NCBI GenBank assembly: GCA_964022665.1
Contig: CAXIDF010000002.1
Coordinates: forward strand, 207,797-271,796
DNA length: 64,000 bases
Source of the DNA: an uncultured Halieaceae bacterium
Lineage (GTDB): Bacteria > Pseudomonadota > Gammaproteobacteria > Pseudomonadales > Halieaceae
Direction of reading: 5' to 3'
The position numbers and the translations under genes are program-made. Shown in pieces: positions 12,699 to 20,328 of this stretch (its first letter is position 1; every line of letters starts with the position of its first letter). The notes below the pieces were generated by a model. That model was not told the DNA's origin. It worked only from the letters and a program-made list of their open reading frames with translations, and did no database searches.

Positions 12699-12716
12699 GC
12701 GGCTCCGACGGGAAAG

Positions 12717-12744
12717 CGGGTCGGCGCTACGGCGCACCGACCCG
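12717..12744. terminator. GC-rich hairpin between the convergent tlpA-like and sat genes
   Basis: CGGGTCGGCGC-TACG-GCGC(A)CCGACCCG, with one bulged base. No strong U-tract on either side. Confidence 0.4.
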
Positions 12745-12751
12745 GCAAGGC

Positions 12752-13933
12752 TTACAGGCTCTGGTAGTAGTCCATAAGGATTTTCGCCACTTCCGGACGC
12801 GAGAACTCGGGCGGTGGCGCAATGCCGTTACCCAGCATTTCACGCACCTTGGTGCCTGACAGCAGCACGAAGTCCTCCGGACTGTGGTCGGGCGCATCAC
12901 GCATCATCACCACCCGGTCCAGTTTCTTGCTGTAGGCCGTGTGATCCGCACGGTAGATCTCCAGCTGCAGCGCGCCAGCGGGCACTTCTTCATCAAAAAT
13001 GGTCTGCGCGTCGAAACCGCCGTAGTAGTCACCCACCCCGGCGTGGTCACGGCCGACGATCAGGTGTGTGCAACCGCAGTTCTGGCGGAAGACTGCGTGC
13101 AATACTGCCTCGCGTGGCCCCGCGTAGAGCATGTCAAAGCCGTAGCCTGTCACCATCACCGTATTGGGTGGGAAATACACATCGACCATTTTGCGAATGG
13201 AGGCGTCGCGCACGTCCGCAGGAATATCGCCCGGCTTCAGCTTGCCCAACAGCATGTGAATGAGGATGCCGTCCGCATCCAGGTCTTCCATGGCCATGCG
13301 ACAGAGCTCTTCGTGAGCACGGTGCATGGGATTGCGGGTCTGGAAGGCCACCACCTTGTTCCAGCCGCGCGAGGCAATTTCCGCGCGAATATCGACCGCG
13401 GTGCGGAACGTGTCAGGAAACTCGCCGGGGAAGTAAGAGAAGTTGAGCACCTCAATCGGCCCGGAAAGCAGCGTGCGCCCCAGGGACTTGAAGGTGGCAA
13501 CGCCCGGGTGTGAAGGATCCAGCGTACGGAACACCTTCTCGGCGATAAAATCGATCTGCTCATCCGCGACATGCTCGGCCGCCTCCACCTGCATCACCGC
13601 CAGCACCGGGTGGCCATCCACGTTGGGGTCGCGCAGGGCGATGCGACTGCCGGACTGAATGTCGGTAGCCTCTGTCAGGTTGACGATAGGTACAGGCCAG
13701 AACAGACCCTCAGACGTCTGTAGCTTCTCCGCTACGCTCATGCTATCGGCCAGGTTCATATAACCCGTCAACGGGTTGAAATAGCCGGCGCCGAGCATGA
13801 CGGCGTTCGCGGCCGCAGCGGAGTTCAGCAGCAACGACGGCAGTTGCTCGGCCTCCTTGAGCAGCGCCTCGCGAGGGGCGTCATCGGCAACGTATAAGGC
13901 TTGCAGCTCGTCTGAGCCGTGTGGCTTGATCAT
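12752..13933 (-). CDS. sat: Sulfate adenylyltransferase (homo-oligomeric ATP sulfurylase, Sat type)
   Basis: QTRNPMHRAHEEL and GRDHAGVG signature motifs. 393 aa. Confidence 0.9.
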   Translation of the reverse strand: MIKPHGSDELQALYVADDAPREALLKEAEQLPSLLLNSAAAANAVMLGAGYFNPLTGYMNLADSMSVAEKLQTSEGLFWPVPIVNLTEATDIQSGSRIALRDPNVDGHPVLAVMQVEAAEHVADEQIDFIAEKVFRTLDPSHPGVATFKSLGRTLLSGPIEVLNFSYFPGEFPDTFRTAVDIRAEIASRGWNKVVAFQTRNPMHRAHEELCRMAMEDLDADGILIHMLLGKLKPGDIPADVRDASIRKMVDVYFPPNTVMVTGYGFDMLYAGPREAVLHAVFRQNCGCTHLIVGRDHAGVGDYYGGFDAQTIFDEEVPAGALQLEIYRADHTAYSKKLDRVVMMRDAPDHSPEDFVLLSGTKVREMLGNGIAPPPEFSRPEVAKILMDYYQSL

Positions 13934-13957
13934 GATTGTCTCCGTTCGGGGTAAAGG

Positions 13958-14575
13958 TCAGGACTTGATGATGCCGCGCTCGCGCAGCAGGGCAATGATG
14001 GCATCCACCTCTTCAGCCAGCGTCTGCTGGTCCGAGTGCAGGTGCACCTCCGGCTTGAACGGGGCCTCGTAGGGGTCATCAATGCCTGTGAAGTTCTTGA
14101 TTTCACCGGCGCGCGCTTTCTTGTACAGGCCCTTGGGATCGCGGGCTTCAGCCGCTTCCAGGGAGCAGTCGACGTGGATTTCAATAAAATCCATGCCCGC
14201 CGCCTCGTGCAGTTCACGCACCTGATTGCGATCGCTGGCATAGGGGCTGATAAAGCTGCTCAGGGTAAGGATACCGCAATCCACAAACAGCTTGGAGATT
14301 TCCCCGATGCGACGGATGTTTTCCGTGCGGTCGTCAGCGCTGAAACCGAGGTTGCGGTTGATACCCAGACGCACGTTATCGCCGTCCAGACGATAAGCGA
14401 GTACGCCCATCTCGTTCAGGCGACCTTCCAGCTCGACCGCCACCGTGCTTTTGCCACTGCCGGACAGACCGGTAAACCAGAGGGTTGCCCCCTTGTGGCC
14501 CAACAGCTTCTCCCGGTGCTCACGGGTGATGTCACCCTCGTGCCAGTGGACGTTTGTCGCTTTTTGCTCTGCCAT
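13958..14575 (-). CDS. cysC: Adenylyl-sulfate (APS) kinase
   Basis: P-loop GLSGSGKST. LDGDNVR and FISPY motifs. RBS AGAGGGAG. Confidence 0.9.
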   Translation of the reverse strand: MAEQKATNVHWHEGDITREHREKLLGHKGATLWFTGLSGSGKSTVAVELEGRLNEMGVLAYRLDGDNVRLGINRNLGFSADDRTENIRRIGEISKLFVDCGILTLSSFISPYASDRNQVRELHEAAGMDFIEIHVDCSLEAAEARDPKGLYKKARAGEIKNFTGIDDPYEAPFKPEVHLHSDQQTLAEEVDAIIALLRERGIIKS

Positions 14576-14632
14576 GTGCTCCCTCTCGTGCAGTGATGCA
14601 GGTTGTTCGCCGCTCGCCCGGCGAAGGTGGTG

Positions 14633-15808
14633 TTACTTCAGGATAAAGGCTTCGCGATAGCCCTTGAATTGTTCCTTGAGTCCTTCCTCGGTGAGGCCGA
14701 ACTGGTCCAGGGTATAGGCGTGGGCCGGGCGCAATTCACGTCGATTGGAATCCTGCCAGCGCGCCATTTCCACACTCGCCTGGGGCGTCAGGTCCATACC
14801 GAGGAAATCATAGACGCGACCAATCTCCACCAGCGGCTGGCTTACCGTATCCTTGAACCAGAGGTCGAGGAAGCGTTCGGGGCCGAGCTCGCGGCGCACG
14901 TCGATCGTATGCTGCATGCCCTTGGCAAACTTGCGCGCCCACTGCCGACCCACTTCCGTGGGATCGGCGGAGTCGGAATAGACCTTCCACACGTTGGCAA
15001 TCATGCTGGCCAGCGAGGGAATGGTCTCGACCGGATCGCGGTGCGATTGTACCACGCGGGCGTCCGGGAAGATGCGAAACACGAGGTCCATGTAGTGCAG
15101 GTGATGCGGCGCCTTCAACGCCCAGCGTTCACCGCTCTGGCCACTGCGCTTCTTCTGCCACTGCAGGAATTGCAGCAGCAACTTCAGGTATTCGTAGCCG
15201 ATGGTGTGGTCCTGCGCTTCAATCCAGGCATCAAAACTTGGCACATGCGCCAGCGCCTGGATATTGAAACTGTAGAAGGACTGTTCCAGCAACATGATGT
15301 CCTCGTCCGGCTCCATCGCATCCAGCGGATGCACGGCGAGCAGGTCGGGGTTGCTGTCGACCATCATTTTCACTTCGGCCTTGGCATCACGTATGCGACG
15401 ATCGCCAGCGGCCGTGAAGTCCCAGTCGAGGTCCGGGCAGGGAAAGCGTGTTTCGTACCACAGGGGGGCGTACATGCGAACGTCCGCCGCAATCGTGCGA
15501 TGCAGCATGGTAGTGCCAGTGCGTGGCAAGCCGACAATCACCAGGGGAGCAACAATCTCTTCATCGCGAATTTCCGGGTGGCGACGCAGCCACTCCTGCA
15601 CGCGCAGCCGGGTGGAAAGAATATCCAGCAGCCGTTGTGCCATTGCCGGGCGCCCGATGGCGTTCAGGTCTGCCTCGTTCACCAGTGACCAGACCAGCCG
15701 CTCCAATGGTTCGCGATAACTGTCATCGCCGAAATCCTCGAGCCCATCTACCGCTTTCGCGGCGGCAACCAGTGCATCGGCATCCAGCGCCAGCTCACTT
15801 GTGGTCAT
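14633..15808 (-). CDS. PAPS-dependent sulfotransferase family protein
   Basis: 5'-phosphosulfate binding loop GLPRTGTTMLH. 3'-phosphate binding region SHRDPVETIPS. I prefer the ATG at 15808 (MTTSELAL...), preceded by AGGAG, over the track start at 15841. It overlaps the upstream gene end by 14 nt. Confidence 0.75.
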   Translation of the reverse strand: MTTSELALDADALVAAAKAVDGLEDFGDDSYREPLERLVWSLVNEADLNAIGRPAMAQRLLDILSTRLRVQEWLRRHPEIRDEEIVAPLVIVGLPRTGTTMLHRTIAADVRMYAPLWYETRFPCPDLDWDFTAAGDRRIRDAKAEVKMMVDSNPDLLAVHPLDAMEPDEDIMLLEQSFYSFNIQALAHVPSFDAWIEAQDHTIGYEYLKLLLQFLQWQKKRSGQSGERWALKAPHHLHYMDLVFRIFPDARVVQSHRDPVETIPSLASMIANVWKVYSDSADPTEVGRQWARKFAKGMQHTIDVRRELGPERFLDLWFKDTVSQPLVEIGRVYDFLGMDLTPQASVEMARWQDSNRRELRPAHAYTLDQFGLTEEGLKEQFKGYREAFILK

Positions 15809-16919
15809 TGAGTTCTCCTGCCTTGAGTGTGTCCAGCGCAACTACGCGTGTGCGCACCGGAGGATGATCGGAGGCTTCCACATAGCGCAGCAGCATGCTG
15901 CCGCAACGGTGGCCAGCGGTACTCAGCCAGTTGGGGAAGGCACTGCCGGGGTTTTCGCTGGCCACGACGATGCGCACGCTGCCATCCGCCTCGTAGCGCG
16001 CACCACTGCGGTTGATGTGAATGCGCTGGAAGCGGTAATCCAGCGACTCCATCCAGAAATTGGATAACTGAAAGTTCCATGTGCGGCAGTCACTGGGCGG
16101 CGTGAACTCGATCACCAGTGCCTCGTCCGGTGCGAGTTGCCAGTAACTGTTGTGGTAGAAAATGGCCGGGTCGCCGCCGGCACGCAGGCACATCTGCTGA
16201 TCGTTGGGCGGCAGTTCGTTGATGTGCTCGGCAAAGCCCAGCATCCAGTTGCGGAACAGCCCGGCCGTGCCGTTGACGAAGGGCACCACACGCTGCAACT
16301 GGCTGGCGAACTCTACGGGGTCAAGTACCGGCGCAACCTGCTGATCCAGGCATTCAATACGCAACTCGAGCTTGGGCTCCCGCGCGCGATCGCGAAAAGT
16401 CTGACGCACCAGGATATTGTCTGACGCCTCGGTCATGGGCAGCCAGTTTCCCGGTTGCGGCGTGGCGCTGACCAGCAGCTCAAACTCGCCATTGGGGCCC
16501 AATTCCAGATCATCCAGGGTGACATGCCCGGTGGGCGCCATATCACCCTGCCCGGCGAAGGAGCCGGCCTTGGTTTCCATGCTCAGGTATTCCACCTGGC
16601 CCGCGTTACCGGTAATACGATAGCTGCGCTGCCCATCCACCGCACAGTTCTGGTAGAAGTTGTCGGGATTGTCATTGCCGATCTTGGCGGTTTCGTGAGA
16701 CAGGGAATAGAACTGGGGGCACGCTGGATCGTTGAACTCCAGGTGTTTCTCCAGGCTCAGGCGCAGCAGGCGCGTCAGGTAGCGGTAACCCTCAGCCCGG
16801 CTGAGATCATCCTCGGGTACGCCAGCGGCGAGAATTTCCTTGCCGGCACTTTTCAGGCCTTCACAGAATTCATCCCACAACTGGCCACTGCGCAATGCTT
16901 CGAGTTCGGACGTCGACAT
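15795..16919 (-). CDS. Conserved protein of unknown function (DUF1214-like)
   Basis: The N-terminal pattern WDEFCEGLKSAG...RAEGYRYLTRLLRLSLE...GNDNPDNFY matches my memory of DUF1214-domain proteins; this is unverified. ATG at 16919 with a GGGAGG RBS. Confidence 0.5.
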   Translation of the reverse strand: MSTSELEALRSGQLWDEFCEGLKSAGKEILAAGVPEDDLSRAEGYRYLTRLLRLSLEKHLEFNDPACPQFYSLSHETAKIGNDNPDNFYQNCAVDGQRSYRITGNAGQVEYLSMETKAGSFAGQGDMAPTGHVTLDDLELGPNGEFELLVSATPQPGNWLPMTEASDNILVRQTFRDRAREPKLELRIECLDQQVAPVLDPVEFASQLQRVVPFVNGTAGLFRNWMLGFAEHINELPPNDQQMCLRAGGDPAIFYHNSYWQLAPDEALVIEFTPPSDCRTWNFQLSNFWMESLDYRFQRIHINRSGARYEADGSVRIVVASENPGSAFPNWLSTAGHRCGSMLLRYVEASDHPPVRTRVVALDTLKAGELNDHK

Positions 16920-17013
16920 AATCAGCCTCCCCGGGGGCAACCATACTTATTATCGGAACGTGGCAGTGTGCAGCTTTTTGCGCCCGAGCGCATCACCCTG
17001 AAGGGTGACCCGT

Positions 17014-17190
17014 CTACCAGTACTGGCTGGCGAGAGACAGCAGTAACATCAACCCCACCAGCGGCAAGAGCCAGCGCTGCAGGCGCCGCACCCGCTCCGC
17101 CGGCATGGGCCGGGCAAAACGTTCACCCAGCACTACCATAAGCGCGACGGCGCTGAACACCAGCACCAACAGCAGCAACAATTGCGTCAC
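17014..17190 (-). CDS. Candidate small membrane protein (58 aa, GTG start), absent from the ORF track
   Basis: My translation is (M)TQLLLLLVLVFSAVALMVVLGERFARPMPAERVRRLQRWLLPLVGLMLLLSLASQYW*. That is two hydrophobic helices joined by a basic loop. It fills the otherwise unexplained 275-nt gap inside the operon. A G-rich stretch lies upstream of the GTG. Confidence 0.3.
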   Translation of the reverse strand: MTQLLLLLVLVFSAVALMVVLGERFARPMPAERVRRLQRWLLPLVGLMLLLSLASQYW

Positions 17191-17215
17191 CCGCCGCCCC
17201 CTGCCCCGCCAGCTT

Positions 17216-18148
17216 TCAGGCGCCAGACTTGAGCAAATGTGGCGAGAGTGCTGCGACCATGTTGCGCACCCCTTCGCGCCAGTCCACGCGGGTCGGACCG
17301 ATCAAGTCATGCATACGGGTGGTGTCGATCGCCAGGCTGCCGAAGGCGGTGGGGCTGTCGCGAAACTCGGGCTCCAGCCCGGTCAGCTCGGTCAGCCAGG
17401 CACACCAGTCCTCGATGCTGACGGCCTGCGAGCCGCCAAAGTTCACGGTGGTCACCTCGTTGCTCGCAGCACCGAGCAGTAGCGGCAGCTTTTCGATGTA
17501 ATCATCCGTATGCAGGAGGTTGTACAGATTTGGGCGTTCGGGATGCACGTCAATGGGAACGCCCTGCTCCATCATCAACAAGTGGTACCAGGGCCAGCCG
17601 CCGTTGTTGCCGTAGGGTACGCTGAGTCGGGCGATCGTTGCCGGAATGCCGAACTGGTGGGCCACGAAACGGCACACGGTTTCCGCAGCGATCTTGCTGA
17701 TGCTGTAGGTCGGGAACATGGAGCGGTGGTTGTCGCCCAGCGGCGCGTCCTCGGCCCGCGGTGCATGGCCGGCGTACTCATACACTGCAGTTGACGACAG
17801 GTGCAGGAAGGCCTTGACGCTGCGGCAGTGCAGCATCAGCCGCCCCAACCCCTCGGCATTCGCGGCCAGGTCGTAATCAAAACTGTCGGTTTTCACCACG
17901 GCAAAGTTCAACACGTAATCGAAGTCGTCGGCCAGGCCGTTCAGCGCCGTGGGGTCTGCGAGGTCGGCCGCCACGCAGCGAACCCCCTTTTCCTCCAGCG
18001 CGCTGCGCTGCGCGGGATCACTGAAGCGTGCCAGCGCGGTCAGTTCCGCTTGCCCGGCCCAGGCGTCAATGACCGGTGCCGCCACCTGCCCGGTAGGGCC
18101 CGTGATAAGGATTTTACTGCCGGCGATATTTACTGGCTGGGCTGTCAT
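17216..18148 (-). CDS. NAD-dependent epimerase/dehydratase (extended SDR)
   Basis: Rossmann motif ILITGPTGQVA. Catalytic YSISK (YxxxK). AGGAGG RBS. Confidence 0.8.
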   Translation of the reverse strand: MTAQPVNIAGSKILITGPTGQVAAPVIDAWAGQAELTALARFSDPAQRSALEEKGVRCVAADLADPTALNGLADDFDYVLNFAVVKTDSFDYDLAANAEGLGRLMLHCRSVKAFLHLSSTAVYEYAGHAPRAEDAPLGDNHRSMFPTYSISKIAAETVCRFVAHQFGIPATIARLSVPYGNNGGWPWYHLLMMEQGVPIDVHPERPNLYNLLHTDDYIEKLPLLLGAASNEVTTVNFGGSQAVSIEDWCAWLTELTGLEPEFRDSPTAFGSLAIDTTRMHDLIGPTRVDWREGVRNMVAALSPHLLKSGA

Positions 18149-18221
18149 GGCTTACCTCCTGTGGATGCTCAGGGCGCAGTCTAGCCTGCCGGAGCCCCCT
18201 ACGGCTCACCCGTTCGGGGGA

Positions 18222-18875
18222 TCAAAAGTCCTCGCGGTCCGGCAGTACACGGTACACTTCGGATATCTGTTCAGGGCCGGTCACCGTGCATTGTAGATCC
18301 TGGATGAGACCGTCCTTGAGGCTGTACACCCAACCGTGTACCGACAGCGCCTGATTGCGCGCCCACGCGTTCTGCACAATGGTGGTATGGCACACATTCG
18401 ACACCTGGCTGATGACGTTGAGCTCACAGAGAAGGTTCACCCGCTCTTCGTCGCTCTCGAGTGCGGCAATGCGTCGACGGTGGCGTTGCTGAACATCCTT
18501 GATGTTGCGCAGCCAGTTGTCGATAAGGCCGTTGTCGCGATTCTCGAATGCGGCGCGCACGCCGCCACAATTGTAGTGCCCCACCACCAGAACGTGTTTT
18601 ACCCGCAACACATCCACGGCGTACTGCAACACGGTCAGGCAATTGAAGTCAGTATGCACGACCATGTTGGCGACGTTGCGATGAACAAACACCTCGCCTG
18701 GCAGGAGGCCGACAATCTGGTTGGCCGGCACGCGGCTGTCCGAGCAGCCAATCCACAGATACTCCGGGCTTTGCTGGTTCGCCAGCTTCTCGAAGAAATC
18801 GGGATCAGAGGTTTTTACGGACTGCGCCCAGGCACGGTTGTTGTCAAAAAGGTCGTCGATACTCCTCAAGGGCAC
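18222..18875 (-). CDS. can: Beta-class carbonic anhydrase
   Basis: Zinc-ligand motifs CSDSRVP and GHYNCGG. GTG start with a GGAGA RBS, 15 nt after the upstream stop. Confidence 0.85.
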   Translation of the reverse strand: MPLRSIDDLFDNNRAWAQSVKTSDPDFFEKLANQQSPEYLWIGCSDSRVPANQIVGLLPGEVFVHRNVANMVVHTDFNCLTVLQYAVDVLRVKHVLVVGHYNCGGVRAAFENRDNGLIDNWLRNIKDVQQRHRRRIAALESDEERVNLLCELNVISQVSNVCHTTIVQNAWARNQALSVHGWVYSLKDGLIQDLQCTVTGPEQISEVYRVLPDREDF

Positions 18876-18890
18876 AGCCTGTCTCCAAGG

Positions 18891-20033
18891 TCAAATCATC
18901 AGGGTGGAGAGACGGCCGAGTTTGAGTTGATTACCATTACCCGCAACCGCGCTCTGTACAGCTTTCGAGCTGGCACTCTGCATTTGCCGCGCCAGCTGCG
19001 CCATGTCAACCGCGGGATACTGCTCAGGCTCCCACGTGACAAGACCGAGGCTAAGCGTAACCTGAAGCACCGCGCCACGGCCATCATCTATCAGGAAATT
19101 TTCGATGTCCCGGCGAATGCGTTCTGCCACATCGATGGAGGGTGACTCACTGGTGCCAGGCAGAAGCACCGCCAGGCGGGAGTCCGACAGGCGGGCGAGG
19201 TAGTCGGTGGCGCGCAGGCCTGATGAGACGCGCTCGGTGACCTTTTTCAACACGAAACGGCCCGTGATCTCGCCGTAGTGCCGATACAGCTCTTCAAACT
19301 CATCGACCTCCAGCATGAGTACGGACAGGGCCTCATTGCCGCGCCTGGCGCGGGCGATCTCGCGTGCAATATCTTTCTCGAAGCCGCGCAGGTTACTGAT
19401 CTGGGTGAGCGGGTCCAGCATGGTCAGGCGGGAAATCTGCTGCCGACTCACCGCATTCTTGAAGCTCTGGGATACCACCGAGGCCAGATGGGTTACCACC
19501 TCGCCATCCGCCGGGGTGGTTTCCATGGGCCGGTCGACAAAACCACAGTGATAGCTACCCAGGAGCCTGCCCGAATCCATCAGGGGTACCAGCAGTGCAT
19601 GCTGAATACCCTGGTCCGTTTTCAACACCTCAAACATGCGGGAATCGGTGGCGTCCAGCAAAATCACCTCGGGCTCCATGTCGTAGAGCTCCTGCATTTC
19701 GAAGACATCGTGATGCAGCTGCAGGTACTCGCCGTAGCGATGACCCGATACCATCAGGCCCGCCAGCACATTCTCGGGGTCATAGAGCCAGAGCTCCGCA
19801 ATACGGAACCCGAAATGCCGGGGCATGCTGACCAGCAGCACTTCAAGCAGTGCGCCGAGATCAGGCGCGTCGAGCATCATGCGTTGCATCTGCCTGGCCT
19901 GATCGACCAGCCAGCGGTTCAGCTGGATGGTTTCGGAACGGCGCTGCTCGCGCACTTCCGCAGGGCTGGCAGGTGCTGGCGCCGCTTCAATTTCCTCGCC
20001 AGGGAACACATCGTACACAGAGTCATCCGACAT
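18891..20033 (-). CDS. GAF domain protein with a degenerate GGDEF domain (RxxD I-site retained)
   Basis: The C-terminal domain aligns to GGDEF (DPLTQISNLRGF ... LEVDEF ...). The active-site GG(D/E)EF is replaced by SDSRL (19173..19187). RATD sits exactly at the I-site position. I prefer the ATG at 20033 to the TTG at 20072. Confidence 0.75.
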   Translation of the reverse strand: MSDDSVYDVFPGEEIEAAPAPASPAEVREQRRSETIQLNRWLVDQARQMQRMMLDAPDLGALLEVLLVSMPRHFGFRIAELWLYDPENVLAGLMVSGHRYGEYLQLHHDVFEMQELYDMEPEVILLDATDSRMFEVLKTDQGIQHALLVPLMDSGRLLGSYHCGFVDRPMETTPADGEVVTHLASVVSQSFKNAVSRQQISRLTMLDPLTQISNLRGFEKDIAREIARARRGNEALSVLMLEVDEFEELYRHYGEITGRFVLKKVTERVSSGLRATDYLARLSDSRLAVLLPGTSESPSIDVAERIRRDIENFLIDDGRGAVLQVTLSLGLVTWEPEQYPAVDMAQLARQMQSASSKAVQSAVAGNGNQLKLGRLSTLMI

Positions 20034-20179
20034 TCGGGATCCCGCCGTTAGCAGGACAAAATACGCCTGCAATGGACACAGTTATTGGCTTGTCAGTGTA
20101 AGCGGCCTATACTCGCGTTGCAAACACAGCCCGCCTTGCAATGTAACAATCTGTTACCCAGAGTCGGCGGGCATGTTTG

Positions 20180-20270
20180 CAAACCTGGGGGTGGCTTCGG
20201 CCTGAGATACCGCTTGCGGTAAACCCTTTGAACCTGACCCGGTTAGGACCGGCGTAGGGATAGGTGCACG
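20180..20270 (+). promoter_or_regulatory. TPP (THI-box) riboswitch
   Basis: GGGGTGGCTTCGGCCTGAGATACCGCTTGCGGTAAACCCTTTGAACCTGACCCGGTTAGGACCGGCGTAGGGA carries the conserved CUGAGA, ACCCUUUGAACCUGA and CGUAGGGA elements in canonical order. It lies in the 5' leader of the TonB-dependent receptor gene. Confidence 0.85.
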
Positions 20271-20328
20271 TCTCCTGTTCATTCCGCATATCCAACCGGT
20301 TCTCTTGCTGTTCTTAATGGAGAACCCG

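Follow-up and report, generated by a model that had tools for sequence, protein, structure and literature searches.

A portable DUF1214-like protein and sulfotransferase pair beside the single sulfate-activation genes of a Halieaceae genome

When the genes that make 3'-phosphoadenosine 5'-phosphosulfate (PAPS) stand beside a sulfotransferase gene, does the PAPS serve that sulfotransferase only, or the whole cell? The question is raised by six minus-strand genes at positions 12752-18148 of a 64,000-nt stretch (positions 207,797 to 271,796 of contig CAXIDF010000002.1, hereafter the window) from an uncultured Halieaceae bacterium, whose assembly (GCA_964022665.1) amounts to 3.82 Mb in 47 contigs and is 99.2% complete. 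In the direction of reading, they encode an extended short-chain dehydrogenase/reductase (SDR), a small membrane protein, a DUF1214-like protein, a sulfotransferase (ST), the adenosine 5'-phosphosulfate (APS) kinase CysC and the ATP sulfurylase Sat. A first interpretation of the letters alone (the sequence-only reading) had seen in this arrangement a private PAPS supply, devoted to the sulfation of some acceptor rather than to assimilation. Our analysis leads to another answer. We find it reasonably probable that the locus joins a housekeeping cysC-sat unit to a portable module, composed of the DUF1214-like protein and the ST, which would sulfate a hydrophobic alcohol.

Sulfate activation in this genome

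Gene calls and Pfam/NCBIfam searches of the 64-kb window recover all six genes, their order and their tight packing as initially described, with spacings of 24, 57, -14, 94 and 25 nt from sat, through cysC, the ST gene, the DUF1214-like gene and the small ORF, to the SDR gene. The last gene of the string, sat (12752-13933, minus strand), encodes a 393-aa protein of the Sat type and not of the CysDN type, with PUA_2 (PF14306, 1.8e-34) and ATP-sulfurylase (PF01747, 2.2e-76) domains and a TIGR00339 score of 395.9 bits for a cut-off of 322.95. It is preceded by cysC (13958-14575, minus strand), whose 205-aa product is an APS kinase with a readable GLSGSGKST P-loop (PF01583, 1.4e-67; NF003013, 282.5 bits for a cut-off of 163).

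A profile search of all contigs shows that both genes are sole copies. PF01747 and PF01583 have a single match each, which are this sat and this cysC, and PF01507 (PAPS_reduct) also has a single match; therefore neither CysD nor CysDN is encoded in the genome. The number of Sat proteins is exactly one in each of the Halieaceae genomes that were searched (24/24). As initially observed, no cysH or cysI is found in the window, these genes being located on other contigs: the sulfite reductase is encoded on contig 9, and the whole-genome check for a separate cysDN/cysH set, which the sequence-only reading had proposed, brings up one CysH-like protein on contig C5 (L001:1411-2031).

This CysH-like protein is unusually short (206 aa) and contains two cysteines only. 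It ends in ...RECGLHTAA, with the ECGLH motif present, and the CC...CxxC Fe-S motif is absent. Its score on the NF002537 phosphoadenylyl-sulfate reductase model is 146.8 bits, just below the cut-off of 154, and it obtains 119 and 111 bits on further PAPS-reductase models vs. 70 bits on an APS-reductase model. From these scores and motifs, we infer that CysH is of the PAPS type. Its gene is flanked by an NMO/FabK-like gene and by a gene encoding a TPR protein, and does not lie within a cys operon.

With a sole sat, a sole cysC, no CysD and a CysH predicted to be of the PAPS type, sat and cysC should both be required for the assimilation of sulfate, the likely route leading from Sat to CysC, PAPS reductase and sulfite reductase. 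The sequence-only reading had named as the mark of a housekeeping role that sat-cysC be the only activation genes of the genome and be required for cysteine prototrophy; the former is what we find, and the latter we infer. A dissimilatory Sat, acting in a reverse APS pathway, was set aside on the position of cysC directly before sat and on the PAPS-type CysH, no search for aprBA having been made.

Sulfation is, moreover, not the business of a single enzyme in this genome. It contains 17 Sulfotransfer_3 matches, 16 of them above the cut-off, in 3.8 Mb, and about 15 further Sulfotransfer_3 proteins draw on the same PAPS as the ST of the window. This number appears as a marked expansion of the family in this Haliea genome.

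The six genes could nevertheless be regarded as a self-contained pathway, in which sat-cysC would make PAPS for this ST only, in the manner of nodPQ-nodH. The tight same-strand packing, the location of cysH and cysI outside the window and the orthologous pairs of betaproteobacteria, which do have a dedicated second cysD-cysNC (see below), all speak for it. It is, however, difficult to reconcile with the gene content described above, that is, sole copies of sat and cysC, no CysD, a CysH of the PAPS type and some 15 other Sulfotransfer_3 genes whose products share the PAPS. Furthermore, the adjacency of cysC and sat is kept across the order, including in genomes without this ST, and the nodPQ-type arrangement of a second activation set beside the ST is not found in this genome. 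A supply restricted to this ST is thus very improbable, and already largely refuted. The same holds for the claim that PAPS would be made here for sulfation rather than for assimilation, as a single Sat and a single APS kinase coexist with a PAPS-type CysH and a sulfite reductase. For genome annotation, this is a warning that sat-cysC beside a sulfotransferase gene is alone no proof of a private PAPS supply, and that a whole-genome check is needed. We propose that cysC-sat would be the cell's single sulfate-activation unit, providing APS and PAPS for cysteine synthesis and for all its sulfotransferases.

The partner-sulfotransferase pair and its link to PAPS-making genes

If cysC-sat belongs to the whole cell, what stands in front of it? 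Upstream of cysC, the ST gene (14633-15808, minus strand) and the gene of the DUF1214-like protein, hereafter the partner (15795-16919, minus strand), form a translationally coupled pair, the ATG of the former overlapping the stop of the latter by 14 nt; a GGAGG ribosome-binding site precedes the partner ATG at 16919. We take this pair to be the functional core of the locus. The ST (391 aa) is a Sulfotransfer_3 protein (PF13469, 7e-40; 138 bits for a cut-off of 27), and the PAPS-binding motifs that had been read in it are both present, PRTGTT for the 5'-phosphosulfate-binding site (5'-PSB) and SHRDP...S for the 3'-phosphate-binding site (3'-PB). It matches PDB 2ZQ5 over residues 10-383 (E 4e-47), with PRTGTT and HRDP aligned, and PDB 2Z6V over its full length (E 1e-40). 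Its N-terminal extension of about 100 aa is also aligned with the mycobacterial enzymes and, together with the Sulfotransfer_3 domain and both PAPS motifs, gives it the features of the cytosolic Stf1/Stf9 type. PDB 2ZQ5, which was deposited as 'Putative uncharacterized protein', is presumably M. tuberculosis Stf1. The ST is thus predicted to be a Stf1-type PAPS sulfotransferase.

The order small ORF-partner-ST-cysC-sat is kept in 5/5 same-genus genomes whose flanks were examined, and also in five other Halieaceae genera. ST orthologues are found in all same-genus genomes (14/14, at least 64% identity) and, at an identity of at least 47%, in seven other genera of the family; none was found in three genera of the family. 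In these three genera, from which the pair is absent, one finds (GGDEF)-(CA)-small ORF-cysC-sat, GGDEF and CA standing for the GAF-GGDEF and beta-carbonic anhydrase genes that are also encountered upstream of the string in the window. The relatives of the partner protein are 81-91% identical in Haliea metagenome-assembled genomes (MAGs) and 66-71% identical in Parahaliea, Sediminihaliea and Halioglobus, which places the window in a Haliea species; the family corresponds to the marine OM60/NOR5 group. The conserved arrangement is not due to chance, and the partner and ST genes appear to have been inserted or lost together, as a unit of two, at the junction of the small ORF and cysC.

The small ORF itself (17014-17190, minus strand) encodes 58 aa from a GTG start, with two hydrophobic segments; it has no Pfam match and only unnamed Atlas clusters match it. 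It is 49-65% identical at the protein level across genera, as determined by tblastn, and is present in the Halieaceae backbone whether or not the ST pair or cysC-sat follows it. It is therefore a real conserved gene, which is part of the local backbone and of neither module. In a strain about 95% identical to ours, found in two seawater runs, 8 nt (GAGCGTCG) stand in place of 207 nt of the window (17019-17225). These 207 nt comprise nearly the entire 58-aa ORF plus the last codons and the stop of the SDR gene, and a close relative can thus do without the small ORF.

The pair also occurs apart from this backbone. Searching the genome by tblastn with the six window proteins reveals five further ST and DUF1214-like pairs, in both gene orders, at C2:118496-120786 (L056), C12:51855-54445 (L057), C10:48228-51701 (L058), C3:285377-288217 (L059) and C20:3-2609 (L060). 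A classical SDR gene lies between or after the pair genes in three of these five (contigs C3, C10 and C20), and the other neighbours encode Zn- and Fe-alcohol dehydrogenases, a thiolase, a thioesterase, a PhyH dioxygenase, a CoA-transferase, TetR and PadR regulators and an MFS transporter. The pair of the window is closer to betaproteobacterial pairs (48-50% identity for the partner, 44-48% for the ST) than to these paralogues of its own genome (27-46% and 29-35%, respectively).

Outside this genome, 80 partner loci were returned from species-representative genomes. They span at least seven phyla and include Halieaceae, Myxococcota, Burkholderia, Paraburkholderia, Cupriavidus, Comamonas, Rhodocyclaceae, Nevskiaceae, Oceanococcus, Gordonia, Longimicrobiales/Gemmatimonadota and MAGs of Acidobacteria and Spirochaetes. 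An ST gene is found directly downstream of the partner gene, on the same strand, in 67 of the 80 loci, with a median gap of 42 nt between the high-scoring segment pairs, and one further locus has no room downstream to show it. The order from partner to ST is thus almost always kept, with an SDR gene often beside the pair. In the window, the partner is likewise homologous to PDB 6ANS over its full length and directly followed by the ST gene, as in the 6ANS/Rv3531c type.

In two metagenomic proteins, the partner and the ST are even fused. In P0391 (772 aa), residues 8-367 are 50% identical to the partner and residues 401-764 are 47% identical to the ST, the gene order being kept; P0392 (674 aa) is a second DUF1214-like and sulfotransferase fusion, and in P0218 (539 aa), also metagenomic, the DUF1214-like protein is fused to SnoaL_2. 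These fusions are rare singletons, and a sequencing frameshift across overlapping genes is a possible source of them.

The Gordonia copies are an observation apart. The Gordonia partner (L110, L125) has 63-70% identity with proteins from Salinisphaeraceae, Pseudomonadales and Gemmatimonadota. On the tree, it clusters with these proteins and stands well apart from the mycobacterial clade of the Rv3531c type; no Mycobacterium names appear among the matches listed in its homologue search. This suggests that the Gordonia pair has been acquired by horizontal transfer.

How often, then, does this portable pair settle next to PAPS-making genes? In 28 of the 80 partner loci, a gene with a cysC domain is no more than 6 kb away. 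In Burkholderia, Cupriavidus and Comamonas, a CysN-CysC fusion and CysD are encoded beside the pair and the same genomes contain another cysD next to cysH elsewhere, indicating a dedicated second activation set in these betaproteobacteria. In other gammaproteobacteria (L143, L091), the order is partner-ST-cysC-sat. In Mycobacteriaceae, a cysC-like gene, encoding an APS-kinase domain, is located 0-4 kb away in 8/16 loci (L185-L188, L192, L197-L199); presumably, this is not so in M. tuberculosis itself. In a FastTree phylogeny built from 104 partner proteins, the copies linked to PAPS genes are distributed over several clades, which are Halieaceae, L143 with the betaproteobacterial copies, L144, and Mycobacteriaceae; the tree is quick and unrooted, and these clades are indicative only. 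The physical coupling of the ST and the DUF1214-like protein to PAPS synthesis, which the sequence-only reading had noticed at this one locus, is repeated in unrelated lineages whose activation genes are non-homologous, and is therefore functional rather than accidental. For the family as a whole, the coupling of sulfation to PAPS supply holds; in this genome, the supply is not a private one.

The pair could alternatively stand beside cysC-sat by chance followed by vertical inheritance in Halieaceae, so that the two would have only the use of PAPS in common. The GGDEF-CA-(SDR)-small ORF synteny is indeed kept in the family whatever it contains. In genome G022, the small ORF, partner and ST genes are together with cysC-sat on another contig, and in genome G024, the nearest ST orthologue is not beside cysC-sat; furthermore, no shared regulatory element was found by promoter, terminator and Rfam scans (see below). 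Mere neighbourhood would, however, not account for the recurrence of the association with non-homologous PAPS genes in betaproteobacteria, in the gammaproteobacterial loci L143, L091 and L144 and in Mycobacteriaceae. With about one cysC-type gene per genome of several Mb, a chance location within 6 kb should also be rare, and yet it is observed in 28 of the 80 loci. We consider simple vicinity quite unlikely.

Partner, acceptor and expression of the locus

What could the partner do for the ST? Of the two domains for which the sequence-only reading had advised a search, DUF1214 and DUF1254, the first is found. PF06742 (DUF1214) matches residues 283-352 only, in the C-terminal part, with 33.5 bits for a cut-off of 25, and Pfam gives no DUF1254 match. 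In canonical DUF1254-DUF1214 proteins, such as V. parahaemolyticus VPA0735 and VPA0106, DUF1254 is N-terminal. The partner (374 aa, cytoplasmic, with no signal peptide) is 50% identical to PDB 6ANS, a 'putative uncharacterized protein' of Burkholderia cenocepacia (E 5e-114), and its AlphaFold2 model, with a predicted local distance difference test of 96.3, reaches a template modeling (TM) score of 0.94 to 6ANS. In each of the two halves of which it is made, a beta-sandwich comes after a long helical stretch. Among paralogues and distant homologues, the Pfam DUF1214 model hits the N-terminal half rather than the C-terminal half, which suggests that the partner is composed of two DUF1214-like halves by internal duplication, and not according to the canonical DUF1254-DUF1214 layout. 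When the structure is compared by Foldseek against the PDB, the next neighbours are V. parahaemolyticus VPA0106 and VPA0735 (3U07/2P3Y), with a TM score of about 0.5 and also uncharacterised, and no lyase, sulfatase, hydrolase or other protein of known function resembles the partner in fold or motif.

The partner family is large, with 3188 representatives at E <= 0.001 in a library clustered at 50%. Across 80 sequences of the family, for a mean column identity of 28%, R172 is invariant, and about 15 polar residues (E43, R46, R50, N84, D86, Y89, Y100, N234, E291, D294, N303, D312, N330 and R345) as well as five tryptophans are at least 90% conserved. Such a pattern would fit a precise polar site, either of an enzyme or for a specific ligand, better than a loose lipid chaperone.

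The SDR gene (17216-18148, minus strand), whose 310-aa product had been read as an epimerase/dehydratase, gives a first hint to the acceptor. The protein matches Pfam Epimerase (3e-21) and contains the TGxxGxxA Rossmann (ITGPTGQVA) and YxxxK catalytic (YSISK) motifs. Its nearest solved homologue is the 'TerB Oxidoreductase' of PDB 6ND7/6D2V, aligned over the full length (residues 7-308, E 1e-59), and its motifs and homology lead us to replace the earlier assignment by that of a predicted TerB-like enzyme, of the ketoreductase type and not a sugar epimerase. TerB is part of terphenyl (terfestatin) biosynthesis, where it would work with an NTF2-like dehydratase as the reductase of a quinone-like terphenyl intermediate; a literature search found no paper on TerB with terfestatin. 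Contrary to the TerB system, the window contains no gene of an NTF2-like partner.

The link of the SDR to the other genes is loose. Direct adjacency is limited to Haliea and its close relatives; elsewhere, the SDR gene is 0.7-1.3 kb away or absent (absent or displaced in genera g2, g4, g5, g6, g9 and g10). Of the six-gene block initially proposed, the part from the small ORF to sat is thus conserved, the SDR is not firmly attached to it, and the minus-strand run continues upstream.

Other cassettes provide further hints. Those of Comamonas testosteroni (L133:8285-11297) and Burkholderia contaminans (L145:9046-11114) encode one or two SnoaL_4 proteins, of the NTF2 fold, and a SRPBCC protein (Polyketide_cyc2), and a classical SDR is also found in the Comamonas and Cupriavidus cassettes. 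With their second cysD and cysN-cysC, the Comamonas and Burkholderia cassettes resemble a compact tailoring cluster for a hydrophobic molecule. Because of these SnoaL-like and SRPBCC genes, the P0218 fusion, the KstR operators of the mycobacterial loci (see below), the neighbours of the paralogous pairs and the TerB-like SDR, the acceptor would be hydrophobic, probably a cyclic or lipidic alcohol.

Our proposal is thus as follows. The partner-ST module, directly upstream of cysC-sat and behind the small conserved membrane ORF, would transfer sulfate from PAPS, by means of the ST, to the hydroxyl of a hydrophobic small molecule, which could be a lipid, a steroid, a terpenoid or an aromatic alcohol. 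This hydroxyl is possibly made by the neighbouring ketoreductase. The DUF1214-like protein would be an obligate second component, either binding and presenting the acceptor or catalysing a reaction on the acceptor or on the sulfate ester. The placement of the pair in the cysC-sat string would tie the expression of the ST to the production of PAPS.

The last of these roles for the partner opens another possibility, namely that sulfate is a transient leaving group. The ST would activate a poorly reactive lipid or steroid alcohol, on whose ester the partner would act by elimination, substitution or isomerisation, in a catabolic route without stable sulfated product. The many invariant charged residues of the partner are enzyme-like, the pair is strict and sometimes fused, the mycobacterial copy belongs to the KstR lipid/cholesterol catabolic regulon, and the paralogous pairs lie among alcohol dehydrogenase, thiolase and thioesterase genes. 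Olefin synthases, in which a sulfotransferase domain prepares an elimination by sulfation, provide a precedent; the match of the ST to PDB 4GOX ('Polyketide synthase') is only weak. This possibility is at odds with a partner that resembles no lyase, sulfatase or hydrolase in fold or motif, with the cost of one PAPS per turnover and with the pair of the window, which is not flanked by catabolic genes. We judge it unlikely.

The expression of the string was approached by searching for signals and for environmental transcripts. Upstream of the SDR, the minus-strand run continues with genes encoding a beta-carbonic anhydrase (18222-18875) and a GAF-GGDEF protein (18891-20033), identified by Pfam and separated by gaps of 73 and 15 nt; these two may share a transcript with the downstream genes and are outside the sulfation function. 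Consensus promoter and terminator scans of the string are at chance level. No Rfam element is found within it, and the only neighbouring one is a thiamine pyrophosphate (TPP) riboswitch on the plus strand (RF00059, 70 bits, 20177-20278). None of the runs recorded as RNA contains the locus. A single 7.6-kb contig of the strain about 95% identical to ours, from the two seawater runs, which are labelled metatranscriptomic and flagged as probably DNA, spans 12710-20063, and short contigs from another study bridge four junctions. A long transcript running from the GGDEF gene to sat would agree with these contigs, which are a weak hint to it and no proof. Adapter sequence marks the end of the 7.6-kb contig, 30 nt before the ATG at 20033, and the following contig begins at 20102. 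Both breaks, at 20063 and 20102, lie in a divergent intergenic region; the GGDEF-to-sat string and the TPP-riboswitch leader could have their 5' ends there.

Several points weigh against a housekeeping cysC-sat joined to a sulfating module. The signal scans of the string, which is a candidate operon, remain at chance. The SDR of the window is of another class than the classical SDR of the cassettes, and is missing in several genera. Within Halieaceae, the location of the pair next to cysC-sat could be inherited synteny, the two being apart in G022 and G024. The score of CysH, whose PAPS specificity is a predicted one, lies under the NCBIfam cut-off. Finally, the structural neighbours of the partner are all uncharacterised, and our literature search found neither a published link of DUF1214 to sulfotransferases nor a functional study of DUF1214.

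Few sulfated metabolites of bacteria have a defined genetic basis, and no acceptor is known for mycobacterial Stf1. Our results show that Stf1-type enzymes are accompanied by an almost obligatory partner of solved structure and that this pair is repeatedly placed beside PAPS-making genes. As the pair is present in Haliea, Cupriavidus necator and Comamonas testosteroni, which are culturable and harmless, its acceptor and the role of the partner could be found there and transferred to the stf1 operon. One conjecture, which we advance tentatively and hold to be rather improbable, is that Stf1-type sulfotransferases are two-component enzymes, the DUF1214-like protein being the catalytic partner that processes the sulfate ester, and that steroids, isoprenoids, lipids and other hydrophobic alcohols are transiently activated by sulfation when they are broken down or remodelled. 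If true, it would explain the 20-year-old puzzle of the KstR-regulated stf1 operon in M. tuberculosis, as well as the placement of PAPS synthesis next to the pair.

Comparison with known systems

Rhizobial nodPQ-nodH, for Nod factors, are sulfation loci that carry their own PAPS genes. The window is similar to them in that sulfate-activation genes are linked to a PAPS sulfotransferase. It differs in having a single set of activation genes, whereas in the nodPQ-nodH type they are duplicated beside a housekeeping set; the latter type is not known to have a DUF1214-like partner, and has a different ST family and known acceptors. A sulfotransferase beside PAPS genes is thus a known arrangement; for an obligatory DUF1214-like partner, no published description was found.

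In the 6ANS cassettes of Burkholderia, Cupriavidus and Comamonas, the partner is followed by an ST 44-48% identical to that of the window, whose own partner is 50% identical to 6ANS. Their second cysD and cysN-cysC, classical SDR, two SnoaL-like proteins and SRPBCC protein are, in contrast, absent from the window.

The third comparison is with mycobacteria. The partner family is present in 106 of the 151 Mycobacteriaceae genomes that were sampled, and the order DUF1214-like protein, classical SDR, ST is found in 13/16 mycobacterial loci. In M. tuberculosis, Rv3529c is Stf1 (PMC8882603), and Rv3530c and Rv3531c are listed as an oxidoreductase and as a hypothetical protein, respectively (PMC6429209). 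A KstR operator has been published for Rv3531c/Rv3532 (PMC1995591). This 29-nt operator has no copy with at most one mismatch in the 151 Mycobacteriaceae genomes; in one mycobacterial locus, a copy with 2 mismatches precedes the partner gene by 48 nt, and in 8/16 loci, a KstR-type operator (TAGAAC..GTT..A) is located upstream of this gene at a distance of up to about 100 nt.

The window shares with Rv3531c-Rv3530c-Rv3529c both protein families and their order, the DUF1214-like protein first and the Stf1-type ST next. The mycobacterial proteins, among which the M. tuberculosis sequence is not included, are only 26-32% (partner) and 28-35% (ST) identical to those of the window. The mycobacterial triad contains a classical SDR (adh_short), whereas the string of the window has none and a TerB-like extended SDR lies upstream instead; the window is also without KstR context, and housekeeping cysC-sat genes follow its pair. 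With these differences in surroundings, the Rv3531c-Rv3530c-Rv3529c (stf1) operon of the KstR cholesterol/lipid regulon and the partner-ST pair of the window are of the same cassette type.

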